Below, one piece after another: positions 5,148 to 49,440 of a DNA stretch of 49,440 nucleotides. The DNA comes from a virus: positions 1 to 49,440 of the IMG/VR virus record IMGVR_UViG_3300045988_127364. The stretch is one strand, 5' to 3'. Within the stretch, counting starts at the first letter, position 1; each line of letters begins with the position of its first letter. The position numbers were made by a program, and so were the translations under genes. Under the pieces are notes generated by a model. That model was not told where the DNA came from. It worked only from the letters and a program-made list of their open reading frames with translations, and did not search any database.

Positions 5148-5744
5148 CTAGACTTCAAGCTCTCCTGAATCGATCAGTCGGCGCCTTATCTTCGTGTAGG
5201 TGCTCACGCCTATGCCGAGCTGCGCGCAGGCGTCGCGCCGCTTCTCCTTCCTGGCCTTCACCAGCGCCACATGGCGCTTGAACTCGTCAACGTCCACCTC
5301 GGCGGGCGGCCTGCCCTCGCGCCAGCCCGGTTTCTGCCTGGCGACGGCCTTGCCCTCCGCCGTGCGCTGGGCGATCATATCGCGCTCGAACTCGGCCATG
5401 GCGAACATGACGGAGACCATCATCTTGCCGACGGGCGTGTTGTCCAAGGTGCCCATGTTGAGCACGCGGACAGTAACTCCCCTGTCGAGGAGCGACCTCA
5501 CGACCTCGCAGCCTCCGGTGACGGTACGCGCGATTCGGTCGAGCTTGGTCACTACCAGCGTGTCGCCGTCTTGCAGGCGCTCCAGAAGGGCGTCGAACTC
5601 CGGTCGGTCGGTCGTGGTGCCCGTGAAAGCCTCCTGCACTATCTCGGTGCAGCCAGCCTCCAACAGCGACTCATGCTGTGCGTCTAGCGAGTTTCCGTCC
5701 CTGAGCTGCCCTTTCGTTGACACTCGGGCGTAACCGTAAATCAT
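5148..5744 (-). CDS. serine recombinase (resolvase/invertase family, small)
   Basis: N-terminal GYARVSTKGQ catalytic-serine motif; 198 aa with a C-terminal HTH-like region (resolvase/invertase size). Confidence 0.85.
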   Translation of the reverse strand: MIYGYARVSTKGQLRDGNSLDAQHESLLEAGCTEIVQEAFTGTTTDRPEFDALLERLQDGDTLVVTKLDRIARTVTGGCEVVRSLLDRGVTVRVLNMGTLDNTPVGKMMVSVMFAMAEFERDMIAQRTAEGKAVARQKPGWREGRPPAEVDVDEFKRHVALVKARKEKRRDACAQLGIGVSTYTKIRRRLIDSGELEV

Positions 5745-18281: not shown

Positions 18282-18673
18282 TCCTCCCTTACGTTGCGTA
18301 TCCTTAAGTACGAATCGACTTTCGCGTTCTTGGAGACGTAGCCCGCCCTGGTGCCGACTCCGTTGCGGCACCTGCTGGACGTGTGAATCCTTCGCCTGCC
18401 CTCGTCCCTGCACTCCTGCGAGCAGTAGACGGCGTTCTTCGCTGAGCCGCCGAAAGCCTTGCCGCAAATCTTGCAGGTGCAGGCGTAGCGGCGTCCGTCC
18501 TCCTCGTAGCTGAAATAGTGGCCGCCGACCATGCTCCCGTCTCGGCAGGCTGCGCTGATGGAGGACTTAGCGGCTGCAACCGACACGGCTGCGGCAGTTA
18601 CGCTTACGTAGCGCTTGCCGTCATCGCGCAATACGGCGTGCCATTTGCCAGCTGGCTTCTTCTTGTCCGTCAT
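18272..18673 (-). CDS. Cys-rich zinc-finger protein
   Basis: 133 aa with CTCKICG...CSQEC. Confidence 0.45.
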   Translation of the reverse strand: MTDKKKPAGKWHAVLRDDGKRYVSVTAAAVSVAAAKSSISAACRDGSMVGGHYFSYEEDGRRYACTCKICGKAFGGSAKNAVYCSQECRDEGRRRIHTSSRCRNGVGTRAGYVSKNAKVDSYLRIRNVREEWK

Positions 18674-19302
18674 TTGTTGAGCCTCGCGATGCAGACGTAA
18701 CCGTTGTCCCGATATACGCGGATAATGTCGGAGAGCCCGTTTGTCCTGATGTAACTTTCGATGCAGGACTGCACGTTGTTTGATGCCTTGCGGCCAACGC
18801 GGTAGTCGGTGCTACTCGTCGTGTACTTGTGCTTGATGACTGATAGTCCGCTGTCGATAAACGCGTCGATTAGAGGCTTGTACCTGCTGTTGCCGGGGCC
18901 GGGGCGCTTTCCGGCGTAGGCTTTCTCTGGCCACAGGGACTCGTCGAAGGCCTGCTTGAAGGCCACGGACTCGGCTGCGTCATGCGACTCCTCGATAGCC
19001 GCGTCAACGAGGCAGTCGATGCGGGTGTCGCAGAACAGCTGAGCGATGGTGCGCACCGAAACGCGCGTGGTGAACGTCGGCATCGTGCGGTACGACTCCT
19101 GCGGCACGACGGCTGTGATCAAATCCTTTACGGTGGCTCCCATGTCGCGTGCGACCTTTTTGCAGATAGCCCACGACACTCCGAGGTTGATGTCGTACTC
19201 GTCTCCGGCTCTGCACTTGGTGACGGCCTTGGTGCCGTCCTCGAAAAAGACGATGGTTGCAGGTCCGCTGAACTTCACGGACTTGACCTTGATGTTATTC
19301 AT
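18670..19302 (-). CDS. hypothetical protein
   Basis: 211 aa from an ATG with GGAGA RBS; its N-terminal domain is paralogous to the C-terminus of the 26668-27084 gene. Confidence 0.5.
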   Translation of the reverse strand: MNNIKVKSVKFSGPATIVFFEDGTKAVTKCRAGDEYDINLGVSWAICKKVARDMGATVKDLITAVVPQESYRTMPTFTTRVSVRTIAQLFCDTRIDCLVDAAIEESHDAAESVAFKQAFDESLWPEKAYAGKRPGPGNSRYKPLIDAFIDSGLSVIKHKYTTSSTDYRVGRKASNNVQSCIESYIRTNGLSDIIRVYRDNGYVCIARLNK

Positions 19303-19349: not shown

Positions 19350-20747
19350 CTATAGCCTGTCGACCGCCTCGATGCGCTCTCCCAGCCAGCGCATGACCGG
19401 AACAGCCATGCTGTTGCCGCACGCCTTGTAGCGCAGTGAGTCTGGGCACTCCTCGGCAGGCTTTCCCTTCCACGGGATTCTGGTGTGGTTGTCCGGGAAA
19501 CCCTGCAGCCGCTCGCACTCCAGCGGAGTCAGGCGGCGAACTACCGAGTTGATGCCGCTTTCTGCGGTCGTATTATCATTGATGTTGTGATAACCTGCGA
19601 TCGGCTCCGATTCGTCGGCGCCGCTGCCGTTCGCCGCTCCTTGGTGGTTCTTGAAAGCGACGACTGGCGGGTCTTTGCGGGTGTGGGCGCTGATCGTTCC
19701 AGCGATTTCATCGTCCACGCTCGTGTTCTTCTGCGTGTCAGTCATGCACACCAGGCTCTGGTTGTTTACCGTGCTGAGGGTGCCGCTGATTTCGTCCTGA
19801 ATCAAAGGTCCTTTGCCCCCCCCCTGGTTTGCCTGCCCTGTCTCGGATAAGCCAGCTGTGCATGTCTCACTCTCCTCGTACATAACCGCAGGATTGTGGT
19901 AGTCGGCAGTGAGTGTCGGTGACTGCTCCACAGCGGCTCCGATGCCGCCTGCCTTTGAGCATTGGTGGTACTTGAACGCCACCGCAGGACGGTCAATCGT
20001 CGTCAGGGTGTACATAGGCTCCCCAGGTTCTTGGAACCCCCACCCATTGCCGCCGTTCTCGGGCTTGCTCCCGATGATGTTTCCGGCGATCGAGAAGGTG
20101 TCATGCTGGCTATCGGGGTTTAGGCGTCCTGTTCCGCTACCTTGCGCAACGCTGCGTCCAGAAGCGGCGGCAACGGCTTTCCTCTTTTCTCGGCTCGATG
20201 GAGTATCCCAGCACATGCTTTCTGGCTCAAAGAGTACTTCGCAGGCGCGCGCGTCTCCAAGGTGTCCGACAAGAAAGAGACGTTCGCGCCTTTGGGCCAC
20301 GCCGAAGAACTGCGCGTCCAGTACTCGCCACGCCAAACCGTACCCGAGGGCATCCATTTCTCCGAGCAGCTGTCCGAAAGCCGCCCCCCCCTCACACGAG
20401 AGCGCTCCTTTGACGTTTTCCCACAGGAACCACCGAGGCATAAGCTCTTGAACACAACGTATGTACTCGAACATGAGTCCAGAAGCTCCCTTAAGACCTT
20501 CTCGCTTTCCTGCGATGGAGAAGGACTGGCAGGGACTTCCTCCGACCACAAGGTCAACTGCTCCATGAATCTCCTTTTTCCAATCTACTTTTGTGATGTC
20601 TCCGAGGTTCGGGACGTTCGGCCAGCGCTCGGCAAGTACAGCGCTCGGGAAGTCGTCTATCTCGCAGAACGCGAGCGGTTCCCATCCGAGCGGTTCCCAA
20701 GCGAGCGTCGCCGCCTCGACTCCCGAGAAGATGCTTACATATCGCAT
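19350..20747 (-). CDS. DNA (cytosine-5)-methyltransferase
   Basis: Motifs I (SIFSGVEAA), IV (GGSPCQSFSIAG), VI (FLWENVKG), VIII (QRRERLFLVG), IX (RRLTPLECERLQGFPD) and X (GNSMAVPV), with a large target-recognition domain between VIII and IX. Confidence 0.9.
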   Translation of the reverse strand: MRYVSIFSGVEAATLAWEPLGWEPLAFCEIDDFPSAVLAERWPNVPNLGDITKVDWKKEIHGAVDLVVGGSPCQSFSIAGKREGLKGASGLMFEYIRCVQELMPRWFLWENVKGALSCEGGAAFGQLLGEMDALGYGLAWRVLDAQFFGVAQRRERLFLVGHLGDARACEVLFEPESMCWDTPSSREKRKAVAAASGRSVAQGSGTGRLNPDSQHDTFSIAGNIIGSKPENGGNGWGFQEPGEPMYTLTTIDRPAVAFKYHQCSKAGGIGAAVEQSPTLTADYHNPAVMYEESETCTAGLSETGQANQGGGKGPLIQDEISGTLSTVNNQSLVCMTDTQKNTSVDDEIAGTISAHTRKDPPVVAFKNHQGAANGSGADESEPIAGYHNINDNTTAESGINSVVRRLTPLECERLQGFPDNHTRIPWKGKPAEECPDSLRYKACGNSMAVPVMRWLGERIEAVDRL

Positions 20748-20965
20748 TTGGCACCGGCCCAGAACATGCACGATCCATCGCATGGCGTGATGCTGTCGAT
20801 GATGCAGTCGATAAACTCTCCCGTTGAGAGCTGTTTGTTCTTGATGTTCAGCAGGTAGTTGTGCTGAGCAATGCGCTCGCACACGCCGTAGTATCCGCTG
20901 CTGAAATCGTCCCACTTGGCACAGCTTTGGCAGTCGCGCTTCATTTGAACCGACCTCCGATGCAA
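20735..20965 (-). CDS. hypothetical Cys-rich protein
   Basis: 76-aa ORF; start may be the internal ATG at 20944. Confidence 0.4.
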   Translation of the reverse strand: MHRRSVQMKRDCQSCAKWDDFSSGYYGVCERIAQHNYLLNIKNKQLSTGEFIDCIIDSITPCDGSCMFWAGAKCDM

Positions 20966-21042
20966 CCGATAACGGCAATCAAGATGAACAACACGACTAC
21001 GGGGGTGGCATATGCCGTTTCACGTTTACATGGAGCGGTCAT
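20941..21042 (-). CDS. small hydrophobic peptide (33 aa)
   Basis: GAGGGGGTGG RBS; ATGA overlap with the downstream gene. Confidence 0.25.
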   Translation of the reverse strand: MTAPCKRETAYATPVVVLFILIAVIGCIGGRFK

Positions 21043-22144
21043 GTCGCCACCCCCTCATGTTGGTCGCCTTGAGGTTCCAAATCGGCTTTAGGTGATGGAT
21101 GACCTCAACTGTCGGCTCGATAAGCCGCAATATCTCGTCGGCGCTCTTATATGCCTCAGGCGATTCGTCGAGCGTCGCTTCACAGGCGCTCGGGCAGTAG
21201 ATGCCAGCCTCTTTCATCTCTGATACAAACTTCTCGGTGTCCAAGTTGGCGCGTGCCTGCGCACGACTCATGACACGACCAGCGCCGTTGGGAGCGGACT
21301 CGTTCCAATCATTGTTGCCCTTACCGACGGCGATTACTGAGCCGTCGCGCATGTTGAACGGGATAAGGACCTTCTCGCCAGTGTGTGCGCTGATTGCGCC
21401 CTTGCGGATAACGTTGTCATCGGATATGTAGTTGTGCATCGTCTCGAATCGAGCGCTCAGGTCCAGCTTGATTCCAGTGCGTTCCTTAATCTGCTTGAGA
21501 ATGTGGAAACGGTTATCAGTAGCGTATCTCTGGCAGATACGCATGTCGTTGAGATATGCGCCTGCCGCAAAGCTCACGAGGTACTTGAGATCGCGAGGAA
21601 CATCTTCCTTGCACATTTCCTGCGCCATTGCCTGGTGATACTCGGCTACCTGTTTGCCCAGATTGCGAGAACCGGTGTGCACCACAAGATATTGATACCC
21701 ATACTCGTCCTCGTCGAGTTCAACGAAGTGGTTGCCGCCGCCCAGCGTGCCCATGGAGCACTCAATCCGCTCGACCCCTTTGAGATAGGCGTCATTCACA
21801 ACACCGTAGTCATTCTCAAGGCTGCATTTCGGCTCGTTGTGAACGCTGAACCCAGTTGGTACAGCTTTCTTCACGTCGCGGTTGAATTGAATCAAATCGT
21901 AGCGGTCGATACGCTCGTCGAGAGGGGCGCAGAGCATACCGCAACCGATGTCGACTCCGACCAGATTCGGAATAACCTTGTCGCCAAGGTTCGCTGTGAA
22001 CCCGATCACGCAACCCTTTCCGGCGTGGGCGTCGGGCATGATGCGAATCGTGGCACCCTCGAAAGCCGGACACGATGCAATCTCGTCAACCTGCTTCTTG
22101 GCGCTCTCCTCAAGATTCTCAGCGAAAATCTTTACATCTGCCAT
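21026..22144 (-). CDS. rtcB: RtcB-family RNA ligase
   Basis: IMPDAHAGKG, GGGNHFVEL, HTGSRNLG and MHNY motifs of the RtcB family. Confidence 0.9.
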   Translation of the reverse strand: MADVKIFAENLEESAKKQVDEIASCPAFEGATIRIMPDAHAGKGCVIGFTANLGDKVIPNLVGVDIGCGMLCAPLDERIDRYDLIQFNRDVKKAVPTGFSVHNEPKCSLENDYGVVNDAYLKGVERIECSMGTLGGGNHFVELDEDEYGYQYLVVHTGSRNLGKQVAEYHQAMAQEMCKEDVPRDLKYLVSFAAGAYLNDMRICQRYATDNRFHILKQIKERTGIKLDLSARFETMHNYISDDNVIRKGAISAHTGEKVLIPFNMRDGSVIAVGKGNNDWNESAPNGAGRVMSRAQARANLDTEKFVSEMKEAGIYCPSACEATLDESPEAYKSADEILRLIEPTVEVIHHLKPIWNLKATNMRGWRHDRSM

Positions 22145-22169
22145 TTAACCTCCTTCTTATATAAGTGCG

Positions 22170-22610
22170 TTACTCGACTCCCGTGCTGCCATATCCGTTT
22201 GAGCCACGGTCACTGTCGGACAGCTCGTCGACGCTCAGGAAATCGACGTCCTCGCACTTGATGATCACTATCTGGCAGACACGGTCGCCCGGATACACCG
22301 TGAAGGCCTTCTCGCCCAAGTTGAGCAGCTTGGCCTTGATGGGACCACGGTATCCCGAGTCGATGATGCCGACGCCGTTCGCCAGGCAGATGCCGTAGTT
22401 GCACCCGAGTCCAGAGCGCGGGGCCTGCAGGCCGAAGTAACCCTCGGGAATCTCCATGCTCACGCCGAGGTCAATCCAGGCGGACTCCCCGACCCCGATG
22501 GTCACGGGACGCGGGATGAAGGCCCGCATGTCGGCTCCGGCGTCGCCCTTGTGCTTTCGCTCGGGCGTGTGCCCGTACTCGGCGACTGTCTTAATCTCCA
22601 TCGGTTCCAT
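22170..22610 (-). CDS. dut: dUTP diphosphatase
   Basis: IIDSGYRG dUTPase motif; 146 aa. Confidence 0.9.
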   Translation of the reverse strand: MEPMEIKTVAEYGHTPERKHKGDAGADMRAFIPRPVTIGVGESAWIDLGVSMEIPEGYFGLQAPRSGLGCNYGICLANGVGIIDSGYRGPIKAKLLNLGEKAFTVYPGDRVCQIVIIKCEDVDFLSVDELSDSDRGSNGYGSTGVE

Positions 22611-22806
22611 CTCCTTCCAGCGGGTGCGAACGACCCGCCAACGGGTAGCTGGCCTTGAACCAGTCGCATTTGCAGGGACACTCGATGCACAGCCGGAAGT
22701 CCTCCCGGTCGAAATCCGAGTCGGTAACGACGGCGCCTGTCTTGCACTCGTTCAAAAGCCACCTCCTTCCAGAAGCGGGGCGACCAGTGAAGGCCACCCC
22801 GCACAC
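22591..22806 (-). CDS. hypothetical Cys-rich protein
   Basis: 71-aa ORF. Confidence 0.35.
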   Translation of the reverse strand: MCGVAFTGRPASGRRWLLNECKTGAVVTDSDFDREDFRLCIECPCKCDWFKASYPLAGRSHPLEGDGTDGD

Positions 22807-22809
22807 AAA

Positions 22810-23037
22810 TCAGTACTCGACGAAGCCGTTACAAGGCTCGTCGCTTTCCTCGATCGCGTTCTCCTGCACCCATGCGAGCACGTCCGCAGCGCCGATGCTC
22901 TGGCGCTCGTCGTACCACTGGGCGTACTTTCTCTTGCAGAAGCCGCAGCCGCTCTCGCCGATGAACGCGAACGACTCGCATTGTCCGCACTCGTAGTTGG
23001 GTCCGGCGTCGGGTGCGCCGTCGCGCTCAAGATTCAT
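22810..23037 (-). CDS. zinc-finger protein
   Basis: 76 aa from an ATG with AGGAGG RBS; CGQC..CGFC. Confidence 0.4.
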   Translation of the reverse strand: MNLERDGAPDAGPNYECGQCESFAFIGESGCGFCKRKYAQWYDERQSIGAADVLAWVQENAIEESDEPCNGFVEY

Positions 23038-23047
23038 CTGAATCCTC

Positions 23048-23545
23048 CTAGAACGGAATGTCCTCGTCATAGACCTCGGCAGCGGCAACAGGAGCCGCCT
23101 GACGGGGCGCTGCGGGGCGAACGGGAGCAGGAGTGGGAGTGCTGATAACGGCACCGCCCTGCTCGTCTCGGCGGCTCATGAACTCAATCTCGTCCACGAT
23201 GACCTCCAGCTTGGAACGGCGCTCGCCGTCCTTCTCCCAGCTGGAGTAGCGCAGCTTGCCCTCGATGGCGACCTTGCTGCCCTTGGCGATGTAGTTGGCA
23301 ATCTTCTCGGCGCGTGTGCCGAACATGGTGCAGTCGACGAAGTTGGGATAGTCCTCCCACTCACCTGTACTCGGATTCTTTCGCCTGTCGTTGACGGCGA
23401 TTCCGAAGTTGAGCACCTGCGAACCGCTCTGGGTGGCGCGAAGCTCGGGGTCGCGGGTCAGGTTGCCCGTGACGCAAACTCGGTTGATGGACACTATTTC
23501 TTCCTCTCGTTGAGCAGCTTCACGATCTTGTCGCGCTGGCGGCAA
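23048..23545 (-). CDS. ssb: single-stranded DNA-binding protein
   Basis: OB-fold SSB signature with acidic C-terminal tail DEDIPF. Confidence 0.9.
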   Translation of the reverse strand: MPPARQDREAAQREEEIVSINRVCVTGNLTRDPELRATQSGSQVLNFGIAVNDRRKNPSTGEWEDYPNFVDCTMFGTRAEKIANYIAKGSKVAIEGKLRYSSWEKDGERRSKLEVIVDEIEFMSRRDEQGGAVISTPTPAPVRPAAPRQAAPVAAAEVYDEDIPF

Positions 23546-23808
23546 CCGAGGCTACCGAGACGTCGCTTCTCGTCGATGCCAAGCTCCTCAAGAATCTGCT
23601 TGGACTTGGTCTTGCCGACGCCCGGCAGGGACTCGATGAAGTAGCGCAGGCGCATACGCTGAGCCTCCGGGGCATCGAGCACTTCAAGCGGCTCGACCTC
23701 AATCCACTTCATCTTGCGGCGAAGCTCGGCGAGCTGCTTGCGCGCCTCGGTCGCCTTTTTTAGCGCCAGCTTGCGCTCCTCCTCAGTAAGCTCGTGGTTG
23801 ATGGGCAT
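23494..23808 (-). CDS. helix-hairpin-helix DNA-binding protein
   Basis: LPGVGKTKSKQILEELG HhH-like segment. Confidence 0.4.
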   Translation of the reverse strand: MPINHELTEEERKLALKKATEARKQLAELRRKMKWIEVEPLEVLDAPEAQRMRLRYFIESLPGVGKTKSKQILEELGIDEKRRLGSLGCRQRDKIVKLLNERKK

Positions 23809-24647
23809 TACTCGGAAACCTCCTCGATAATCTCGCCAGTCTCGGCGTCAACGTTTGCGGGTACATCGGTCGGCTCGGGAGCCAGCGGGTCCTCGAAAAG
23901 GCGGTTGCCCTCCTCGTCGAGGACGATCGGGGTACTGTCATCATCGGTAACGGCCTTTGCGACCTCGACTGAGCGCGGCAGCAGGCCACGGTTGAAGGCT
24001 CGACGGATGACCGTCTTTTCTGCCATGGCGGCGTAGTCGGACGCCCACGGTCCGAACTTGCTGGCCTTGGAGCGATCCTTCACCTCGTCGACCTCCTTCT
24101 TGCTCATTTGCAGGAACACGAAGCCGCCGTCTTTCAAATGGCAGGACAGGTAGACTAGCTTGAGCTTCTTAGCGCTGTGGTCGGCATCGAGGTTGGGCTT
24201 GAAGCTGAAATGAACGCCAGTCTCGTCCTCCCAGTACTCGAAGTCGTCGCCCTCGTAGACGCACTGCGTGCGCACGGTCTTGACTTGACCGGAGCGGCGA
24301 ACCAGTTCCAACATGCCGTTCTTGCCGAGGATGAACTGGGCCTCCTTGCGGCCAGTATGGCGATTGTTGTACGGCAGGATGTAGGCGTTGCCCATGATGT
24401 CGTTCGGCTCAAGTCCGATTTCAGCGCACTTGAGGCAGCAGCTGAGCATACTCTGTACCGAGCATTCCTTTAAGTCTGGAATCTGCTTGTATGTCGCGAT
24501 CGCCAGCTGGGTCAGGCGCTCGGGCGTGAAGCCCTTCGGCATGACCGCCTGCAGCTGCGGAGCGCAGCGCTTGATAAGTCCGGCGAAAGAGTTGTCCTGC
24601 TGCTGGGACTGCTTAATCTCCTGTTTCGCCTGCGTGATAGCTCCCAA
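23808..24647 (-). CDS. recT: RecT-family single-strand annealing protein
   Basis: 279-aa ORF immediately upstream of the YqaJ-type exonuclease, the canonical RecT/Exo pairing; the family call rests on that gene order and size. Confidence 0.8.
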   Translation of the reverse strand: MGAITQAKQEIKQSQQQDNSFAGLIKRCAPQLQAVMPKGFTPERLTQLAIATYKQIPDLKECSVQSMLSCCLKCAEIGLEPNDIMGNAYILPYNNRHTGRKEAQFILGKNGMLELVRRSGQVKTVRTQCVYEGDDFEYWEDETGVHFSFKPNLDADHSAKKLKLVYLSCHLKDGGFVFLQMSKKEVDEVKDRSKASKFGPWASDYAAMAEKTVIRRAFNRGLLPRSVEVAKAVTDDDSTPIVLDEEGNRLFEDPLAPEPTDVPANVDAETGEIIEEVSE

Positions 24648-24649
24648 AG

Positions 24650-25567
24650 TTATTCCTTCTCTTTCTTAGCGGCGGCGAACCTGATGCCGCCGTTCGTGTC
24701 TTGACCGTTCTTCTTGTAGCGCGACCAGGTGAACCTGCCGTCAGGAGTGACAATGCCTCGGTTGTCACCGATAAGCTGGCACAGCCTGTTGACGGCGCCT
24801 TGGTATTCCTTGACCGCCTTGTCTCGGGACTCCTTGGCATTCAGCCAGTCGGCGGCCTCCTTCGGAGTCTTGTCCATGTCGACAAGCTCGCCGGGTGTCC
24901 GGTGCTTTGCGAGGAGAGCCTTGATTTCAGCCCCGACCTCTCCGATCGGTGGCTCTACGTCGTCCTCTACCATCGACCAGAAGTCGTCGACCTCCTTGTT
25001 TACGGCCCGGACGTCGTCCTCGTCGCGCATGACGCGGAACTCCTTGTAAATCTGGCCGCCGATAAGAACGGCCACGTCCGCGAACTTGCGCCCAGTGACG
25101 CTCATGTAATGGGTAATCTGCGTGATGTAGTAGATGGGCACGCCCTCGTCCCAGTCGTGCTCCCTGTAGAGCGACGCGGTCTTGATTTCCAAGATGCCCC
25201 ATCCGAGTTCGGGGTCCTTGACCTCGTAGTCTAGGGACGCTTGTGCATGGGGTCGCTCGATGCTCTGGCAGACGGCGTTGACTCGTCTGACAATGCGGTC
25301 CGGGTGCTGACTGGCGTAATGACCACCCACGATGGGTTCGAGGATGTTTCCCCATTCAACAGCCTCATTGTCCGAGAGGTCTGCTGGCGGGATGTACCCG
25401 AGCTTTTCTGCCCAGACCTCGTATGGCCCGCGATAATGAGAGAGTCCCATAATGGCAGCGACATCCGAACCTCCGATTCCCTTGCGGCGCTGAGCCAACC
25501 ACGCGTCGTTGTCACCATCTGGAGTCCTGATTAGCGTGAAGTACTTGTTCTCGCCTACTATCGGCAT
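24650..25567 (-). CDS. YqaJ-type viral recombinase exonuclease
   Basis: N-terminal GIGGSDVAAIMGLSHYRGPYEVW; paired with RecT. Confidence 0.85.
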   Translation of the reverse strand: MPIVGENKYFTLIRTPDGDNDAWLAQRRKGIGGSDVAAIMGLSHYRGPYEVWAEKLGYIPPADLSDNEAVEWGNILEPIVGGHYASQHPDRIVRRVNAVCQSIERPHAQASLDYEVKDPELGWGILEIKTASLYREHDWDEGVPIYYITQITHYMSVTGRKFADVAVLIGGQIYKEFRVMRDEDDVRAVNKEVDDFWSMVEDDVEPPIGEVGAEIKALLAKHRTPGELVDMDKTPKEAADWLNAKESRDKAVKEYQGAVNRLCQLIGDNRGIVTPDGRFTWSRYKKNGQDTNGGIRFAAAKKEKE

Positions 25568-26022
25568 GGGTTCACCTCCGCGACCTCGTCCATGTTCATC
25601 AGTCCGAGCGGGATGATGGTGATGACCATGCGGTCGTTCTCAAGGCCCCTCATACGAGGCCACTTGCTTATGTCTGCCTTAACGACTTGGCAATCGTCCT
25701 TCCAAGCCAGGCCGTTGAGTGCATCGGAAACCAGCTTTCCGATGTTGTCCCAATCGGGCTTGAAGGTATCCTCCTCGCAGAGAACCTTCTTCGGGCGCGA
25801 CTTGGGGAGGGCACGGTACGCCTCGACCAGCAGGATGAAAGGCTCGCGCCCGGTCTGGTGCTCTGCCGGGAGGACGTTGCCCTCCTTGGCGATTACATCC
25901 AGATAGGCGGCGCGGATTGCCTGCTCGTCGTCGTGAGTCCGCTTGGTCGTGTAGGTTCGGCCTGTGCCAGTGAAGCGCGGCCTGTCCTTGCCCCGGACGA
26001 AATCGACTCGGAACGTCGTCAT
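25558..26022 (-). CDS. rusA: RusA-family Holliday-junction resolvase
   Basis: GKDRPRFTGTGRTYTTKRTHDDEQ RusA-like N-terminus. Confidence 0.75.
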   Translation of the reverse strand: MTTFRVDFVRGKDRPRFTGTGRTYTTKRTHDDEQAIRAAYLDVIAKEGNVLPAEHQTGREPFILLVEAYRALPKSRPKKVLCEEDTFKPDWDNIGKLVSDALNGLAWKDDCQVVKADISKWPRMRGLENDRMVITIIPLGLMNMDEVAEVNPCR

Positions 26023-26369
26023 AGCAGCGCTCCGATGTCCTTGAGATAGCGGTCAAGCTCGTAGACACTGATGCGTGCGCCGCGCTCGCCGTCAGGCTCG
26101 ATGAAGTCGATAAGGCCCTTCTCGCGGTCGCGCCGGAGCCTGTCCTTCCCGAGTCCGGTGAACTTGCCGCACTCGGCTACCGTGTAGGTAATCCTCGCAG
26201 GCAACCCGGCCGCCATTGCGATCGACAGAGTCGACTGCTGCGGATGCTCCGCTTTTGTCACGTCCTCGATGAACGCCTTGGTGGCGATGTTGATGACGCG
26301 GATAAGTTCCTTCGCGCTGTCGGACGCCAAGCCTTCATCATGCTGACTCTGCAAATCTGCTACACTCAT
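26019..26369 (-). CDS. HTH DNA-binding protein (excisionase/AlpA-like fold)
   Basis: ITYTVAECGKFTGLGKDRLRR...ISVYELDRYL. Confidence 0.4.
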   Translation of the reverse strand: MSVADLQSQHDEGLASDSAKELIRVINIATKAFIEDVTKAEHPQQSTLSIAMAAGLPARITYTVAECGKFTGLGKDRLRRDREKGLIDFIEPDGERGARISVYELDRYLKDIGALL

Positions 26370-26430
26370 GCCGACCTCCTTTCAGGTCAAAGCCCCCGCG
26401 CGGTGGAATGTGGCAGGGGCTTTTTTCGTG

Positions 26431-26664
26431 CTATTCGGTTGTGTAGTAGTCTGAATAAATATTGGTCAAACAGAGTCCGAGCGCTGCGTTCATCATGTCC
26501 TGCATGTTGTCCATTGGCTTCACCTTTGCGAGACATTCGAGTAAGGCGCCTTTTTGCTCAGGCTCGATTTTGACATAGAAGCAAATCGGGCTTTTTTCCA
26601 CTACTGACTTGTTTATCTTGACCTCAGACAGCCACTGCTCGTATGCAGCTTGGGAATCTTCCAC
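26431..26664 (-). CDS. hypothetical protein
   Basis: 77-aa ORF (GTG start in the track). Confidence 0.35.
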   Translation of the reverse strand: MEDSQAAYEQWLSEVKINKSVVEKSPICFYVKIEPEQKGALLECLAKVKPMDNMQDMMNAALGLCLTNIYSDYYTTE

Positions 26665-26667
26665 CAG

Positions 26668-27084
26668 CTACTCCTCGACGAAGCGCTTGATGATGTTGTT
26701 GAAGCTACCCTTGTTGCCGTAGACCTTCTTGGCGCTAGCTGCGAGCAAGCCCTTCTCTTTGTCGAACTTCTCGCGCTGGCACTTAAAGACGGTCTTGGTG
26801 CCGTCCTTCCAGTAGACGATCGTTGCCGGGTAATGGAAGATGACGCGGTCGATTGCGGGGACTGCGCGCCGCGTGCCCCAGTCAAGCGTGCCAATGCATT
26901 TGGGTTCACCAAGAGTACGCGTGAACATGTCATTCTTAATCGCGTTCAGAACGACGCGCTTGATGGAATCGCTCGAGTTTGACTTGCCGAGTGCATAGGC
27001 CTCGTAGCCATTGATTTCGAGCATGACCTCGGCGCTGGTATCGCCCATGTGGCTAGTAACAAGCATTTTGCCAACATTGACCAT
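26668..27084 (-). CDS. hypothetical protein
   Basis: 138 aa; C-terminal PATIVYWKDGTKTVFKC domain is paralogous to the 18670-19302 gene; first gene downstream of the tRNA array. Confidence 0.45.
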   Translation of the reverse strand: MVNVGKMLVTSHMGDTSAEVMLEINGYEAYALGKSNSSDSIKRVVLNAIKNDMFTRTLGEPKCIGTLDWGTRRAVPAIDRVIFHYPATIVYWKDGTKTVFKCQREKFDKEKGLLAASAKKVYGNKGSFNNIIKRFVEE

Positions 27085-27126
27085 CAGTTACCTCCTTCTT
27101 AGGTATTTGGTTTTGAGAAAAGTGGG

Positions 27127-27209
27127 CAGGCGCGGAGGGATTCGAACCCCCATCGGCGTTACCGCCACGGTTTTGGAGACCGCTGCTCTGCCTGTTGAGC
27201 TACACGCCT
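27127..27209 (-). tRNA. type-II-like tRNA (long variable arm) with CCA anticodon (nominally Trp), no encoded CCA end
   Basis: Manual fold: acceptor aggcgtg/cgcgcct, D arm gctc-aacaggca-gagc, anticodon loop CUCCAAA, 15-nt variable stem-loop ggcg-GTAA-cgcc, canonical T-loop TTCGAAT, discriminator G. Confidence 0.5.
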
Positions 27210-27289
27210 GTGTCTGGAGTGCTGCCCAGGAGTCGCACCTGGTTGCGCGGATTTGCACTCCGCTGCCTATCTGTTCGGCCAGCAGCACA

Positions 27290-27366
27290 TGGAGTCGCCA
27301 GAGGGAATCGAACCCACAACACGCGGTTTAGGAAACCGCCGCTCTATCCCATTGAGCTATGACGAC
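27290..27366 (-). tRNA. tRNA-Arg (CCU)
   Basis: Manual fold: anticodon loop UUCCUAA, T-loop TTCGATT, CCA encoded. Confidence 0.65.
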
Positions 27367-27461
27367 GAAAATGGTGCCGCATCTAGGTAACGCTCCCAGC
27401 CAGCCAATAGGCACCTGATTTACAGTCAGGCCCCCGTCTTTAGGGGAATACTGCGGCAGTG

Positions 27462-27552
27462 TGGAGGAGGGTGTGGGATTCGAACCCACGGATCGCTATC
27501 AACGACCTGCTGTTTTCTAGACAGCTGCAATAATCCTCTCTGCCAACCCTCC
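27462..27552 (-). tRNA. type-II tRNA with anticodon loop CUAGAAA (Ser-like, nominal anticodon AGA)
   Basis: 91 nt with long variable arm and canonical T-loop TTCGAAT, CCA encoded, discriminator U. The loop follows the tRNA-Ser CU-NGA-AA pattern with A at position 34. Confidence 0.5.
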
Positions 27553-27554
27553 GT

Positions 27555-27643
27555 TGGCGGAGCATGTAGGACTTGCACCTACGGGCCTCGTGTGAGGTCT
27601 ACGGGTTAGCAACCCGCTGCAGTAGCTACTGTGCCAATGCTCC
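27555..27643 (-). tRNA. tRNA-Ser (GCU)
   Basis: Type-II fold, anticodon loop UUGCUAA, discriminator G, CCA encoded; non-canonical T-loop TGCAAGT (G at position 55). Confidence 0.5.
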
Positions 27644-27646
27644 GAA

Positions 27647-27721
27647 TGGTTGTCGCGGTAGGTGCTGACCCTACGGCCTCCCCGTTATCAACAGGGTGCT
27701 CTACCGTTGAGCTACGCGACA
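27647..27721 (-). tRNA. tRNA-Ile (GAU)
   Basis: Anticodon loop UUGAUAA, discriminator A, CCA encoded; unusual T-loop GTCAGCA. Confidence 0.5.
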
Positions 27722-27722
27722 G

Positions 27723-27796
27723 TGGAGCCGCCTGCGGGAGTCGAACCCGCATTACCGATTTGGAGGACCGGCGCTCTACCTTTGAGCTAAGGCGGC
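27723..27796 (-). tRNA. tRNA-Gly (UCC)
   Basis: Anticodon loop CCUCCAA (C at position 33), discriminator U, canonical T-loop TTCGACT, CCA encoded. Confidence 0.55.
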
Positions 27797-27800
27797 GTGC

Positions 27801-27873
27801 CTCGCGCGGCAGGCCTCGAACCTGCGACCTCCCGGTTAACGGCCGGGCGCTCTACCAGCTGAGCTACACGCAA
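27801..27873 (-). tRNA. tRNA-Asn (GUU)
   Basis: Anticodon loop CCGUUAA (C at position 33), T-loop TTCGAGG, discriminator G, no CCA encoded. Confidence 0.55.
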
Positions 27874-27927
27874 ATGGTGGGGCAAACAATACGGAGGCAA
27901 TACATCTCCGCTGGGTTTGCCCCGTGT

Positions 27928-28002
27928 TGGTGGCGGGAGGGGGATTCGAACCCCCATGTCACGGCTTATGAGGCCGTTGAGTTACCCGTACTCTATCCCG
28001 CT
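27928..28002 (-). tRNA. tRNA-Met (CAU)
   Basis: Anticodon loop CUCAUAA, canonical T-loop TTCGAAT, A1:C72 mismatch, CCA encoded. Elongator versus initiator versus Ile2 is not resolved. Confidence 0.6.
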
Positions 28003-28003
28003 A

Positions 28004-28079
28004 TGGCTTCTCGGCAGGGAATCGAACCCTGATTGACTGAACCAGAATCAGCCGTGCTAAACCGTTACACTACCGAGAA
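28004..28079 (-). tRNA. tRNA-Gln (CUG)
   Basis: Anticodon loop UUCUGGU, T-loop TTCGATT, CCA encoded. Confidence 0.6.
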
Positions 28080-28490: not shown

Positions 28491-28700
28491 CTACTGGTCT
28501 GAGTCACGCCCAGTAAGCCAGTCGAGCGAACAGCCGATAAAGTCGGCGAGGATGACGGCCTCTGATAGAGTGAACGGGCGCTCACCTGTGAGTTTTGCGT
28601 GAGTTGCGTTCCATCCGAGTCCTAGCAAATCGGCAACTTTTTGCTGCGTGATTCCCTTTGACTTGATGTACTCTGAGACATGCTTTGCGCAGGTATTCAC
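28491..28700 (-). CDS. Cro-like XRE-family HTH regulator
   Basis: 69 aa with HTH ITQQKVADLLGLGWNATHAKL; divergent from the cI-like gene. Confidence 0.65.
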   Translation of the reverse strand: MNTCAKHVSEYIKSKGITQQKVADLLGLGWNATHAKLTGERPFTLSEAVILADFIGCSLDWLTGRDSDQ

Positions 28701-28844: not shown

Positions 28845-29210
28845 ATGACCCTTCTAGCTGGGCTGCAAGGCATCCTCGACAGCCGAAATATGAAGCCTGC
28901 CGACTTGTGTAGGCTTTGTGGATTGAGCACTGGAGTGATGTCGAACTACATGAACGGAAAGCGTGTCCCGTCAATCGCAAACGCGATTACGATCGCCAAT
29001 GCGCTTGGCGTGACGCTCGACGAACTCGTCGGCAGGGAGCCGACGCGCTATGCGCCGCCGCCGCTGACAAAAGACGAAGAAGCGCTTCTAGACGACTACC
29101 GCAACTGCACGCCGACCTCTAAAGAGAAAATCGACGAGTACGCGGAGTTCCAGAGTGCTAAAAGCAAAGAGTCCACGCGAGATTCCAAGCGTTCTAAGAG
29201 GAGTGCGTAA
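28845..29210 (+). CDS. CI-like XRE-family HTH repressor
   Basis: 121 aa; HTH PADLCRLCGLSTGVMSNYMNGKRVPS; first gene of the lysogeny operon. Confidence 0.65.
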   Translation: MTLLAGLQGILDSRNMKPADLCRLCGLSTGVMSNYMNGKRVPSIANAITIANALGVTLDELVGREPTRYAPPPLTKDEEALLDDYRNCTPTSKEKIDEYAEFQSAKSKESTRDSKRSKRSA

Positions 29211-29761
29211 TGGCTGAAACCAAAGAGCCGCCGTTTCTGGTGGAGTTAATCGTCCTGCTGCTGGGCGGCATCGGCTTTCTCGTGACGCTGCCCGTGGCGG
29301 CGTGCACGCTTATCGTCGATGACTACAAGCCTTACGCTCCGTACTGGTGCGGAGCGTTCGCCGTCTGTCTGGTTTGCGCACTGATGCTCAGGAACACCGA
29401 GTGGGGCAGGCGCGAGCTACGGGACAACAAGAAGCCGACCTCAGCGACGAAGCCCGAAGCTGCCGAAAAGGGCTACGCTCCTGCCAACCCGAACGCAACG
29501 CTCAACCGCGCAGCGCTCGACACGACCCCGGAGAAGGTAAAGAAGGCCCAGCGTAAGGCGGGACTCCGCTGCCCGAAGTGCGGCTCCACCGACGTCACGT
29601 TCCTGAACAACACGTCGAAGTCCACAAGCGCGGGAAAGTCGCTCCTCGGGGCCGAGGTGTTCGGCCTTGAGGGAATGGTGGTAGGCGCCGCGATGGGCAG
29701 GAAGGGAAAGCGCGAGTACCTTTGCAACCACTGCGGCAAGCGGTACTCGGTCAGGAACTAG
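29210..29761 (+). CDS. membrane protein with C-terminal zinc ribbon
   Basis: Two N-terminal TM helices; CPKCGS...CNHCGK. Confidence 0.5.
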   Translation: MAETKEPPFLVELIVLLLGGIGFLVTLPVAACTLIVDDYKPYAPYWCGAFAVCLVCALMLRNTEWGRRELRDNKKPTSATKPEAAEKGYAPANPNATLNRAALDTTPEKVKKAQRKAGLRCPKCGSTDVTFLNNTSKSTSAGKSLLGAEVFGLEGMVVGAAMGRKGKREYLCNHCGKRYSVRN

Positions 29762-29844: not shown

Positions 29845-30957
29845 ATGCCACGGAAACGCGCTGAGAGGGGTTCCATCGCCCGTTTAGACCGAAACCGTTA
29901 CAGGATTAGGTACTGGGGAGACAAGGGCGACGGAAAGGGCTACAGGCGCTTGAGCGCGAACTTCACCGGGACGCTGACAGAGGCGAGGGCAGAGCGCGAC
30001 AGGCTGATAGAGCTTCACTCGACCAGCCAGCGCACGCAGCATACGGTAAGGTACGTGTTCGACACGCTGTACTGGCCGTCATGTGAAAAGCGGCTGGCAG
30101 AGAACACGCTGAAAATGTACCGATCGACTTGGAGCAGGTACGTCAAGCCGAAGTTCGGCGGTTGCAAGCTAGGGGCAGTGAGGCCGCTGGAGATACAGAA
30201 GTGGCTCGACGGCATGACGAAGAACCAGGCGAGACGGTCGCTAAACATGCTGTCCAGTATCTACAAGACGGCAGTGAAGTACGAGCTTGCCGAGAGCGAC
30301 CCGACCTCGGTGGGCCTCACCGTTCCTGACACGATCAACGAGATGGATAAAGGAATATACGACCTCGCCGAGCTGATGCGAATGGCAGAGCTGCTGCGCG
30401 GCTCGTGCATGGAGGGCGTATTCCTTCTTTGCGCGTTCGGTTCATGCCGCCCGGGAGAGGCGCTTGCCGTTGACCCGGCGTCCGTCGAGCTGTTCAGAGC
30501 CGATAACGGGATGGCCTGCGCAGCCGTCCTCATTGAGCGTGAGGCGGTTCGCGGAATTATCGTCGATCGCACTAAGACTGACAGCAGCAAGCGCTATGTC
30601 GTCGTTCCCGGAAAGTGGGGCGAGCGTCTAGCCGAAGTCGCTGACGAGCGAATCGAGGGCGGACACAACTTGTTCATCGAGAGCATGAAGGGCGGGCCGC
30701 TGATTTCATCTAGCTTGAAGGTGAAATGGGAAAACGAGTCAAAGAGGCTCGGGTTTGCATACCACCCGCTGCGCAACCTAAGAAACTCTTGGCGAACCAG
30801 CTGGGAGTACGAAGTCAGGATACCTCCCGCAACGCTTGAAGTATTGATGGGCCACTCAGGGTCTGGAGTGTCCGCTAAGCACTATGTCCGCGCGAGTTTA
30901 ATGATGCTGGTGAACACGGTCGCCGACGCCTTCGCTTGCACCGGACTTGTTTCATAG
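29845..30957 (+). CDS. int: tyrosine integrase
   Basis: 370 aa; catalytic-region motifs HPLRNLRNSW (H-x-x-R) and MGHSGSGVSAKHY (Tyr). Confidence 0.9.
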   Translation: MPRKRAERGSIARLDRNRYRIRYWGDKGDGKGYRRLSANFTGTLTEARAERDRLIELHSTSQRTQHTVRYVFDTLYWPSCEKRLAENTLKMYRSTWSRYVKPKFGGCKLGAVRPLEIQKWLDGMTKNQARRSLNMLSSIYKTAVKYELAESDPTSVGLTVPDTINEMDKGIYDLAELMRMAELLRGSCMEGVFLLCAFGSCRPGEALAVDPASVELFRADNGMACAAVLIEREAVRGIIVDRTKTDSSKRYVVVPGKWGERLAEVADERIEGGHNLFIESMKGGPLISSSLKVKWENESKRLGFAYHPLRNLRNSWRTSWEYEVRIPPATLEVLMGHSGSGVSAKHYVRASLMMLVNTVADAFACTGLVS

Positions 30958-33016: not shown

Positions 33017-33367
33017 CTACTGCTCACCTCCCGCAATCATGTCGCAAATCTCGAGGATTGCCGCGTCATGGATGGCGCTCGTCTCCTCGCATTTCTCGAC
33101 GCGCTCGGCGATCGTCGCATCGTCGTTGACATGCGAATCCCAGAGAGCGTCGAAGCTGTCGGTGATTTCGGCCACGGACGGAGTTCCAGCGACCTTGAAG
33201 TACAGCTCCTCTGCGCTGTAGAACTCGTAACCGGACCCGAGGCCGTTGTCAGCGGTGTCCTTCACGATGTCTCGGCGAAGCCAGACGTGGGAGTAGGGAG
33301 CGCCGTCATCATGCTCGATGCTCACTGCATCGAGCGGGGTGGCAGAGATTGTTTTCACTGCGCTCAT
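33017..33367 (-). CDS. acidic hypothetical protein downstream of the DGR reverse transcriptase
   Basis: 117 aa from an ATG with AAAGGTGGA RBS. Confidence 0.45.
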   Translation of the reverse strand: MSAVKTISATPLDAVSIEHDDGAPYSHVWLRRDIVKDTADNGLGSGYEFYSAEELYFKVAGTPSVAEITDSFDALWDSHVNDDATIAERVEKCEETSAIHDAAILEICDMIAGGEQ

Positions 33368-34451
33368 GCGTCCACCTTTCTTTTCGGGTGTTGTCAGCAT
33401 GAGCATGTGCCGATACGTGTTTCCGCGCGTGCCGGAACGTGGCATCGTATCCGTTTTTCTGCCTCGCCTTGTGCGAGTCCGAGTGCTCCAGGTATCCCCA
33501 GTAGGAACAGACCCTCTTGGCTCCGCGCAGCGTCGGCCTTCGGTCGTAGTCACTGTACGCTTTCCTTATTCTGAGGTACAGGTCGGGCTTTATCGTGACC
33601 CTGCTCGGCCTTACGCTGTTGCTGAGAGCGGCACACGGCTCCTGCTCGCCAGACCTCGCCACCTTCCAGCCCTTGAACTCCAGGCCGTAACCTTCTTTGA
33701 AATACGTACCGAGCGTCCTGACCGCAAGCTCCATGTCGCGCTTGCAGTTGCCGAAGATGAAAAGGTCATCTGCGTACCAGCACTGGTGCTCGATAAGCCT
33801 GACGCTCCTGCCGCGCCTTGTCTTATGTGCGTCCTCCAGGAAGTGGTAGCCGAACGACAGCACGAGCTGTGCCATGCGCAGCGAGAAGTAGCTGCCAATT
33901 TCCAGGCACCCGTCATAGGAGTCGAGCAGGCAGTCGCACAGGTAAAGGACGTCGGCGCTCTTTATGTACTTGCGGAGTATCGACTTGACCACATCGGTCT
34001 TAATGGACGGGTAGCACTTTCGCACATCGACATGCACATGGTACTTGCTGTCGCGCAGATACATCTGGCAGGCGCCGACGAGCATCGGCTGGCCCTTGCC
34101 CATCACGCTTGCCGTCTGCCAGTAGCCCACCTTGGCATCAAGGAGAGGCGCGAGAGCCGTGACCGCGAGGTAGTCGCATGTCTGCTGCTTGACGCTCTCG
34201 ATGCCGATGATGCGCAGCTTGCCGTTGGTAGTCTCGATGTGCCTGTAGCGCCTGATCGGTACGAACGACAGCGACCTCGACTCAATCTCGAATGCGATCT
34301 CGCTGATTAACGCCGACTCGGTGCCGTATTCTTCACACACGCGCCAGCGGTTCTTCTTGCCAGCCTCTCCGCACAGCCAAGTATCGTATGCGGCATGAAT
34401 TAGGGACTCGTCTATGCGGAGTCCCTTGCAGTAGCTTTTTATATAGACCAA
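33309..34451 (-). CDS. DGR-type reverse transcriptase
   Basis: RT motifs HVHVDVRKCYPSI (motif 2, ..SI), IGSYFSLRMAQ (motif 4-like) and QCWYADDLFIFG (motif 5, YADD). TTG start with purine-rich RBS. Located 150 bp from the template repeat. Confidence 0.75.
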   Translation of the reverse strand: MVYIKSYCKGLRIDESLIHAAYDTWLCGEAGKKNRWRVCEEYGTESALISEIAFEIESRSLSFVPIRRYRHIETTNGKLRIIGIESVKQQTCDYLAVTALAPLLDAKVGYWQTASVMGKGQPMLVGACQMYLRDSKYHVHVDVRKCYPSIKTDVVKSILRKYIKSADVLYLCDCLLDSYDGCLEIGSYFSLRMAQLVLSFGYHFLEDAHKTRRGRSVRLIEHQCWYADDLFIFGNCKRDMELAVRTLGTYFKEGYGLEFKGWKVARSGEQEPCAALSNSVRPSRVTIKPDLYLRIRKAYSDYDRRPTLRGAKRVCSYWGYLEHSDSHKARQKNGYDATFRHARKHVSAHAHADNTRKERWTHERSENNLCHPARCSEHRA

Positions 34452-34604
34452 ATCTCTTTCTGGGTGTCACACGAGCAGTCGCCTTGAGGTTACTAGCCCG
34501 TCGGTCTTTTTGACGATTTCACTTAGTTAAGCTAGGCCGATGCCCATCTCGTCCCAGAAGGACGGAGGGTAGTCGCGGATGGAGAAGATGTTGAAAGAGT
34601 AGTC

Positions 34605-34705
34605 CCAGATTGACGCGAGCCGTAGTTCCACCTGGCGTTCGACAGGTCGTTGTTGCCATTGACGTAGCGAAGGCCAGCATAGCCCCTGTTCCTGAGGTTG
34701 CCGAG
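34605..34705 (-). repeat. DGR template repeat (TR)
   Basis: About 101-bp non-coding copy of the 3' end of the receptor-binding gene. It differs from the VR almost only where TR has A on the coding strand. Confidence 0.75.
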
Positions 34706-34801
34706 AAGGAAAGATACGCCCCGTATTCCGCGAATCCCTATTTTCGAGTTCCGATAGTTGCAGAGCTGATTGTAGCATGTGCTACGGACAGCCGAAGTGA
34801 G

Positions 34802-34824
34802 AAAGAGGGGGCTTTTCGCCCCCT
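34802..34824 (-). ncRNA. GC-rich hairpin immediately 3' of the VR (DGR target-recognition hairpin candidate; alternatively a weak terminator)
   Basis: Minus strand AGAGGGGGC-GAAAA-GCCCCCTCT: 9-bp stem, 5-nt loop, beginning 8 nt after the target gene stop. Confidence 0.5.
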
Positions 34825-34832
34825 CTCGACGG

Positions 34833-49349: not shown

Positions 49350-49440
49350 GTTCTAAGCGACGCCCGGGGTGACGAGCTTCATGAACGGGATGGCGCGGTG
49401 ATCGCTGTAGGCCAGCGACCAGTTGCCTGCGGTGGCGAGC
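49300..49440. repeat. 141-bp exact duplication of bases 1-141 (circular assembly overlap)
   Basis: Read directly from the sequence; unique genome length about 49,299 bp. Confidence 0.95.

Follow-up and report, generated by a model that had tools for sequence, protein, structure and literature searches.

RNA-repair ligases (RtcB or Rnl) accompany sets of transfer RNA (tRNA) genes in jumbo phages (Iyer et al. 2021, PMC7824862), and the idea that phage tRNAs are paired with RNA ligases against tRNA-cleaving defences is already published (PMC7824862). In phage T4, Pnkp and Rnl1 reseal the tRNA-Lys that is cut by the host anticodon nuclease PrrC (PMC10264068). Replacement or decoy tRNAs of phages are experimentally supported (PMC10264068, PMC11555353, PMC11464382), the examples being the T5 tRNA-Tyr against Retron-Eco7, a tRNA against PARIS and the anticodon-loop variants of mycobacteriophages. 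Here, we analysed a virus genome of 49,440 bases, IMGVR_UViG_3300045988_127364 (hereafter the window, meaning the whole of this stretch of DNA), which carries both a gene of the RtcB family, rtcB, and an array of 10 tRNA genes. An earlier sequence-only reading of the window had proposed that the two constitute a repair and replacement counter-defence. The gene identities and positions given in that reading were right; however, the nucleophilic histidine of RtcB is replaced by an asparagine (Asn286) in this phage. We consider it likely that the phage carries a recently inactivated copy of an accessory, dispensable RNA-repair gene, and not an active repair-plus-replacement system.

As in the jumbo-phage sets, tRNAs and an RtcB-family ligase are found in one phage genome; however, the window is a 49-kb temperate phage, its rtcB is a facultative cassette and this copy is devoid of the catalytic histidine. 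The proposed logic is also that of T4, in which a phage enzyme reseals a nuclease-cut tRNA, but the T4 pair consists of unrelated enzymes with an unrelated chemistry (ATP-dependent sealing of 5'-phosphate and 3'-hydroxyl ends after end healing), and the window phage has no kinase-phosphatase, no tRNA-Lys in its array and no known cognate nuclease. As to replacement or decoy tRNAs, the array is made of early-strand phage tRNAs that could replenish depleted host species, whereas codon-usage enrichment explains several of its members more simply. Finally, the window protein has the fold of the characterised RtcB enzymes (P. horikoshii PH1602, E. coli and human RTCB; template modelling (TM) score 0.7-0.78) and, by alignment, the same two-metal ligands (Asp, Cys and three His) and contacts to guanosine triphosphate (GTP) and guanine, but it has Asn for the nucleophile His. 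It is ∼110 residues shorter than the archaeal enzyme, to which it is ∼22% identical, and its subfamily reads IP(F/L/M)NMRDG where characterised RtcB has IPGSMG.

The rtcB gene and its catalytic site

The gene and the codon in question are the following:
21026-22144, minus strand: rtcB open reading frame (ORF), 372 amino acids (aa), full length, identified by PF01139, PHROG 1075 and structure
21287-21289, minus strand: codon AAC of Asn286 (CAC, His, in relatives), placed by alignment to the P. horikoshii RtcB

In structural terms, the window protein belongs to the RtcB family, within the phage RtcB group catalogued as PHROG 1075. It matches the Pfam RtcB family PF01139 with 213.7 bits (cut-off 27; E 7e-63) and PHROG 1075, 'tRNA splicing ligase', with an E-value of 1e-122. 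The AlphaFold (AF2) model has a predicted local distance difference test score of 87.9 and a predicted TM-score of 0.89, and when it was searched with Foldseek against the PDB the top 16 matches were all RtcB, with a probability of 1.0 and a query TM-score of 0.61-0.78 (0.7-0.78 against solved RtcB structures). The protein belongs to a short (∼360 aa) RtcB subfamily and falls below the cut-offs of both the E. coli-type RtcB model (NCBIfam PRK09588; 125.2 bits versus 407) and the model of PrfH-associated RtcB (TIGR03073; 96.1 bits versus 271.8). The sequence-only reading had described a full-length RtcB with MPDAHAGKG, GGGNHF and HTGSR motifs, and all three were indeed found (IMPDAHAGKG at residues 35-44, GGGNHF at 135-140 and HTGSR at 156-160). 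The fourth signature motif, S-A-P-H-G-A-G-R, reads SAPNGAGR in the window.

To place this residue, the protein was aligned with HMMER to the P. horikoshii (Pho) RtcB, in which His404 was numbered by residue count from the printed chain start, D370. The window segment ESAPNGAGRVMSR aligns to the Pho segment GSTCHGAGRVLSR, and Asn286 thereby falls on the nucleophile that accepts guanosine monophosphate (GMP), His404 in Pho and His337 in E. coli (Eco), the motif being STCHGAGR in the characterised enzyme and SAPNGAGR here. The histidine that forms the RtcB-(histidinyl-N)-GMP intermediate is thus absent from the window RtcB. The remainder of the site is kept. The ligands of the binuclear metal centre, which in Pho are Asp95, Cys98, His203, His234 and His329 (PMC9745838), correspond to D65, C68, H139, H156 and H237, all of them invariant in an alignment of 24 sequences (A1). 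Likewise, the residues with a role in GTP or guanine contacts in Pho (PMC3973293, PMC9745838) are retained as D38 (Asp65), N138 (Asn202), F140 (Phe204), E142 (Glu206), N238 (Asn330) and K359 (Lys480).

Mutants at this position have been studied in two enzymes. The Eco H337A protein forms no RtcB-GMP adduct and seals neither 3'-phosphate nor 2',3'-cyclic phosphate ends, while a basal cyclic phosphodiesterase activity remains (PMC3458531). The Pho H404A protein is inactive and, unlike the guanine-pocket mutants, it is not rescued by Archease (PMC3973293). Since an amide side chain cannot form a phosphoramidate and the alanine mutants at this site are dead, the window RtcB is predicted to be ligase-dead; for Asn specifically, we infer the loss of activity. 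A single C>A change would thus have swapped the GMP-accepting His for Asn, so that the phosphoramidate intermediate could not form, and the N286 protein would at most bind GTP/Mn and RNA ends and slowly open cyclic phosphates. On this prediction, the ligase arm is almost certainly inactive in the window genome. The sequence-only reading had made the integrity of the catalytic residues of RtcB its touchstone, and it is precisely the nucleophile, His in all the relatives examined, that is Asn286 here.

The Asn allele is confined to one lineage. Among ∼450 relatives examined, His occupies the position, and Asn was found only in identical copies of this phage (loci L001-L003). The count includes the top protein matches (114/114 with an HG[AS]GR motif and 4 with HGTGR, hence 118/118 motif-bearing matches), 21/21 members of the two 90%-identity clusters spanning this residue, 87/87 other viral loci, 81/81 loci from one-genome-per-species bacterial contigs and 147/147 full-length representatives of 50%-identity clusters. 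The last set of diverse representatives also rules out that the window protein belongs to an RtcB subfamily naturally without the histidine. When compared with seven sister phages, the window rtcB differs by three private nucleotide substitutions, of which one is synonymous and the others are H286N (CAC>AAC) and D362N, the latter in the variable C-terminal tail. So small a number of private changes indicates that the Asn change is recent.

Because the allele differs from all relatives by a single base (CAC>AAC), an assembly or sequencing artefact had to be considered, in which case the true phage would have His and an active ligase. We regard this as extremely unlikely, the identical allele being present in at least three samples and from two assemblers (MEGAHIT k141 contigs of ERZ27272119 and ERZ27272210, and a scaffold of SAMN05414994). 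Records of an identical 372-aa protein exist in JGI/IMG, ENA and GenBank, on four to five contigs, the GenBank entry being DAM53681.1, 'tRNA-splicing ligase RtcB [Caudoviricetes sp.]', and in two further samples the locus matches the window at 100% identity over 18.5 and 14.5 kb. Its recurrence in at least three metagenome assemblies argues for a real lineage and not a read error.

The rtcB cassette in related phages

The cassette and the genes that flank it are the following:
20948-22148, minus strand: rtcB cassette of 1.2 kb (ORF plus an 81-nt downstream spacer), between the dUTPase gene and a 69-aa ORF, delimited by comparison with locus L098
22170-22610, minus strand: dUTPase, directly upstream of rtcB (PF00692, E 1e-24)
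20735-20944, minus strand: 69-aa ORF downstream of rtcB (ORF list)

The adjacent dUTPase gene had also been pointed out in the sequence-only reading. A near-isogenic phage, L098, has a dUTPase and a 69-aa ORF that are each 96% identical to those of the window and keeps the tRNA array. Its homology to the window ends at 22149 and restarts at 20947, so that precisely the rtcB ORF and the 81-nt spacer are missing. By a RecT-anchored search, we found further array-bearing phages in which no RtcB was seen: L097, L099, L100, L101 and L114, whose backbones are 60-77% identical and in which the array is kept. In L099-L101 and L114 nothing RtcB-like is present in the ∼6-8 kb available downstream of the dUTPase gene, while L097 ends ∼0.6 kb past this gene. 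Since L098 keeps the array and lacks exactly the cassette, and since further phages carry the array with no RtcB, the array can do without rtcB. The ligase and the tRNA set are not co-inherited as a functional unit in this phage group, and the functional link between them that the sequence-only reading had drawn is therefore weak.

The sister phages L004-L008, L010 and L171 carry a His-bearing RtcB, 98-99% identical to that of the window, together with the same array of 10-12 tRNAs. Among these His-bearing copies the ratio of nonsynonymous to synonymous polymorphism (pN/pS) is 0.17, indicating that rtcB is kept by purifying selection in these relatives. The cassette would thus be an accessory element encoding a genuine RtcB-fold protein, and family membership suggests that the sister-phage enzyme, with all its catalytic residues, most likely seals breaks in RNA that have 2',3'-cyclic-phosphate or 3'-phosphate and 5'-OH ends. 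Across relatives, rtcB and its spacer (20945-22144) have a nucleotide identity of 98-99.4%, as compared with 85-96% for the dUTPase, SSB (single-stranded DNA-binding protein), RecT, YqaJ and methylase genes, which suggests that the cassette is a recently exchanged module. RecT is itself mosaic, with 85% identity in most relatives and 98% in L007. The phage population appears to value rtcB and yet to tolerate both its clean loss (L098) and H286N (the window).

The closest RtcBs outside this group are those of Collinsella (68-70% identity), which have no neighbours in common with the phage and no tRNA within 10 kb. They belong to the same short subfamily, with the His present, and their context is cellular (a WYL regulator and a UvrD/PD-(D/E)XK helicase-nuclease). 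The closest cellular copy (L251, 6763-9098; 68% identity, on a probable Collinsella chromosome) is divergent from a gene for a WYL/WCX-domain regulator and also adjoins that of a UvrD-PD-(D/E)XK protein. This region looks like a host RNA/DNA damage-response locus, and it could make the phage copy redundant.

On a broader scale, tRNAs and RtcB are associated in phages. At least one tRNA was found at 46/79 RtcB-anchored viral loci (L012-L090; 6.1 tRNAs per 100 kb), at 14/68 RecT-anchored viral controls (1.5 per 100 kb) and at 9/79 loci of RtcB-anchored bacterial genomes (1.1 per 100 kb), RtcB-encoding gut viral contigs thus having ∼4 times more tRNA genes than the RecT-anchored controls. The viral signal comes from 7 of 11 RtcB clusters (80% identity), one of which accounts for 35 loci, mostly with a single tRNA-Met. 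The association is therefore loose and statistical in phages generally, with no obligate coupling in this phage group.

In its strongest form, the sequence-only reading has an active RtcB resealing the cuts of anticodon nucleases while the array replaces depleted tRNAs, as a two-pronged counter-defence. The correct fold, the intactness of 11 of the 12 catalytic or ligand residues, the early-strand location of rtcB at 5 kb from the array and the excess of tRNAs at RtcB-anchored viral loci over RecT controls all agree with such a system, as do the published concept for jumbo phages (PMC7824862) and the experimental support for replacement tRNAs (PMC10264068). For the window, however, we consider it very unlikely: the nucleophile is Asn, at a site where alanine substitution abolishes the ligase activity of two RtcB enzymes, six relatives keep the array without rtcB, and the array has no tRNA-Lys, the classic PrrC/PARIS target. 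The sequence-only reading had seen no polynucleotide kinase/phosphatase or Archease partner, and scans of Pfam, PHROG, NCBIfam and PADLOC bear this out, with no Archease, polynucleotide kinase/phosphatase, RtcA, Ro/Y-RNA or second RNA ligase found. No RtcB-Archease or RtcB-RtcA operon (including an RtcR regulator) was seen among the scanned genes of the whole 49-kb genome (Pfam, PHROG), the unassigned ORFs are all too small for a second ligase and PADLOC gave no matches among the phage ORFs. At the level of the lineage the repair idea survives, given the pN/pS of 0.17 in the sister phages and the ∼4-fold tRNA excess in RtcB-encoding viral contigs, and RNA repair as a counter-defence is plausible for the His-bearing relatives and unlikely in the window phage.

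A second alternative to loss of function is that the N286 protein is kept for a role other than ligation, as a GTP/Mn-bound RNA-end binder, as a slow 2',3'-cyclic phosphodiesterase or through interference with the host RtcB. Its ORF is full length with all the metal, GTP and guanine contacts conserved, the Eco H337A protein keeps a basal phosphodiesterase activity (PMC3458531), the variant phage was present in several people and gave a circular assembly, and Collinsella chromosomes encode their own ∼70%-identical RtcB beside a WYL regulator. We nevertheless judge such a role unlikely, as the allele represents one lineage among ∼450 sequences with no sign of a stable subfamily, three private substitutions leave too little time for visible selection and the clean deletion in L098 shows that the gene is simply dispensable. 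A more specific version, in which the full-length N286 RtcB acts as an RNA-end trap or slow cyclic phosphodiesterase that shields or sequesters tRNA halves or antagonises the WYL-regulated repair by host RtcB, is more improbable still; if true, the N286 protein would be the first natural 'pseudo-ligase' RtcB.

Several points weigh against the loss-of-function interpretation that we favour. The mutants cited are alanine substitutions in distant (∼22% identical) enzymes, and none of them is an H-to-N change. Off-pathway guanylylation of Pho His234 has been seen crystallographically (PMC9745838), so that residual chemistry is possible. The short RtcB subfamily has no biochemically characterised member and scores below the E. 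coli-type and PrfH-type cut-offs of NCBIfam. Apart from this codon the ORF shows no damage, and circular assemblies of the phage were obtained from two samples; the Asn allele is thus not plainly harmful, and it may still serve a role.

The tRNA array and codon usage

27123-28079, minus strand: array of 10 tRNA genes (ARAGORN; Rfam RF00005 for 9 of them)

In the order of transcription, the array encodes Gln(CTG), Met(CAT), Asn(GTT), Gly(TCC), Ile(GAT), Ser(GCT), Ser(AGA), Arg(CCT), Cys(GCA) and Trp(CCA), and the 3' CCA is encoded in most of these genes. The Rfam tRNA model confirms 9/10 at the gathering score, with 50-66 bits. The exception is tRNA-Cys(GCA) (27215-27288, minus strand), which has a 3-bp D stem and an atypical T loop and was called by ARAGORN only; it is called in every related array, and the Rfam tRNA model did not find it even at E≤1. 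When the array region was scanned with Rfam at a low threshold, nothing but sub-threshold chance matches came up, the tRNAs aside. This array recurs, with 9-12 genes, at 14 related phage loci. The early operon would thus open with a 10-tRNA array conserved across the phage group, which may work independently of RtcB by supplying phage-favoured codons and/or replacing depleted host tRNAs.

Codon usage was compared with that of the host in a small sample (4,119 codons of a single Collinsella chromosomal island, locus L251). Several codons read by the array are more frequent in the phage: AGG makes up 0.20-0.26 of the Arg codons versus 0.06 in the host sample, AAC occurs at 33-41 versus 21 per thousand, GGA at 16-17 versus 9 per thousand, TCT at 4-5.5 versus 2 per thousand and, in the phage late genes, CAG at 34 versus 21 per thousand. 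Codon supply is therefore a sufficient conventional explanation for part of the array. For other members this does not hold, ATC, AGC and TGC being already major codons in the host sample.

These figures bear on a further reading, in which the array is ordinary codon-usage compensation without a defence role and rtcB an unrelated moron from a Collinsella-like host. We hold this to be possible, if less than probable. Phage genes use AGG, AAC, GGA, TCT and (in late genes) CAG 1.6-4 times as often as the host sample does, the closest cellular RtcBs are found in Collinsella (68-70% identity) in a non-phage context and rtcB behaves as a discrete indel cassette; against this, array tRNAs also read codons that the host already favours, the host sample is small and the enrichment of tRNAs near RtcB in viral contigs hints at a common selective pressure. 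The size of the host sample, with its single chromosomal island, also counts against our favoured interpretation, namely recent loss of function in a dispensable gene, insofar as the latter draws on the codon comparison.

The array is dynamic (27367-27461 and 27875-27927; loci L004-L010 and L095). The Ser(AGA)-Arg(CCT) spacer measures either 95 or 5 nt, depending on the relative, some related arrays have Gly and Ile in exchanged positions, and some relatives have an extra tRNA-Phe(GAA), with tRNA-Glu(CTC) also present in the L095 locus. The tRNA-Ser at 27462-27552 (minus strand) has the anticodon AGA, with A at the wobble position 34, conserved in all relatives; this anticodon is unusual for bacteria.

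The gene called as tRNA-Trp(CCA) (27123-27210, minus strand) is 86-88 nt long through a 12-nt hairpin in the variable region, GGCG-GUAA-CGCC, which gives it a class-II-like shape. Across the 14 relatives the stem of this hairpin is conserved and the loop varies (GNRA or UUUU). The tRNA keeps A1-U72 and G73, which are Trp-type identity elements, while a long variable arm with G73 resembles the determinants of SerRS, and its charging identity is uncertain. We also considered whether the 88-nt form might be a tRNA-Sec or allo-tRNA-like 8/5 species. This was rejected, since relatives show a normal 7-bp acceptor stem, A1-U72, G73 and the inserted hairpin, and the 8-bp acceptor stem of the window (an extra C at each end, as called by ARAGORN) is probably incidental.

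Genome context and implications

The first and last 141 bases of the window are identical (1-141 = 49300-49440, an exact terminal overlap). Such an overlap is the signature of a circular MEGAHIT assembly with k=141, so that the unique genome is 49,299 bp and the genes at its ends are contiguous. Two public contigs of 49,440 bases carry the same sequence in other rotations. The window is a complete, circularly assembled temperate siphovirus-like gut phage of Collinsella. Collinsella is the most likely host, since C. aerofaciens WP_347492528.1 falls in the same 90%-identity RtcB cluster and the nearest genome matches are Collinsella metagenome-assembled genomes and isolates. A megablast of the 7-kb region against 50,697 GenBank phage records gave no match, and there is therefore no cultured relative from which annotation could be transferred.

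The other features around the array and rtcB are the following:
28491-28700, minus strand: cro-like helix-turn-helix (HTH) gene of the lysogeny switch (Pfam HTH_3, gene table)
28845-29210, plus strand: cI-like HTH repressor (Pfam HTH_3, gene table)
29210-29761, plus strand: 183-aa ORF in the lysogeny region (ORF list)
29845-30957, plus strand: tyrosine integrase (Pfam Phage_int_SAM_3)
25558-26022, minus strand: RusA (Pfam)
24650-25567, minus strand: YqaJ exonuclease (Pfam)
23808-24647, minus strand: RecT (Pfam)
23494-23808, minus strand: S13-like H2TH protein (Pfam)
23048-23545, minus strand: SSB (Pfam)
19350-20783, minus strand: C5 DNA methyltransferase (PF00145)

The tRNA array begins 411 nt downstream of the cro-like gene, and the early recombination module, from RusA to SSB (23048-26022, minus strand), lies between the array and rtcB. 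The rtcB gene starts 4,979 bases past the end of the array, in agreement with the ∼5 kb given in the sequence-only reading, which had placed both in the same early transcription unit. All genes from the cro-like gene (28491-28700) through rtcB are on the minus strand, and a single early unit from the array to rtcB is consistent with this layout. A scan of 19-30 kb for sigma-70 promoters and intrinsic terminators gave counts at or below the shuffled expectation, so the claim stands as far as strand is concerned and draws nothing from the terminator-like sites. The minus strand also carries many small ORFs, and further along the genome are found a DnaC-like loader, small and large terminase, an SPP1-type portal, capsid and tail genes and an endolysin.

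Some further observations were made on this genome. A serine recombinase gene (5148-5744, minus strand; Resolvase domain, E 4e-36) adjoins that of the large terminase and is additional to the tyrosine integrase. At position 29089, codon 82 of the cI-like gene, the window has T (Leu82) and the public contig L001 has A; this is the sole difference between the two in the same coordinates, and L002 and L003 agree with the window. A motif of ∼55 aa, PATIV[YF][WF]xDGTK.V.KC, is common to a 138-aa ORF just downstream of the array (26668-27084, minus strand) and a 210-aa ORF downstream of the methylase gene (18670-19302, minus strand), and neither ORF had a match in Pfam, PHROG, NCBIfam or PADLOC. Finally, a diversity-generating retroelement occupies 33309-36413. 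Its reverse transcriptase gene (33309-34451), with weak RVT_1 and group-II-like matches, adjoins a 100-nt template repeat (34605-34704) that is 80% identical to a variable repeat (34870-34969) covering codons 482-515 of a 526-aa ORF (34833-36413), a probable tail fibre or receptor-binding protein. The commonest mismatch between the repeats is template adenine to guanine (16/41 over the repeat plus flanks).

The useful outcomes of this analysis are mostly negative: a ligase arm that is predicted to be inactive, and a cassette that is gained and lost independently of the array. However, the near-isogenic Collinsella phages constitute a natural allelic series, with the H286 wild type, the N286 point mutant and a clean deletion, which can be used for asking whether a phage RtcB matters in infection. 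Moreover, the cassette is unusually similar between phages whose backbones have diverged, a hint that it spread horizontally not long ago; if this were confirmed, it would point indirectly to selection for RNA repair in phages of gut Actinomycetota.

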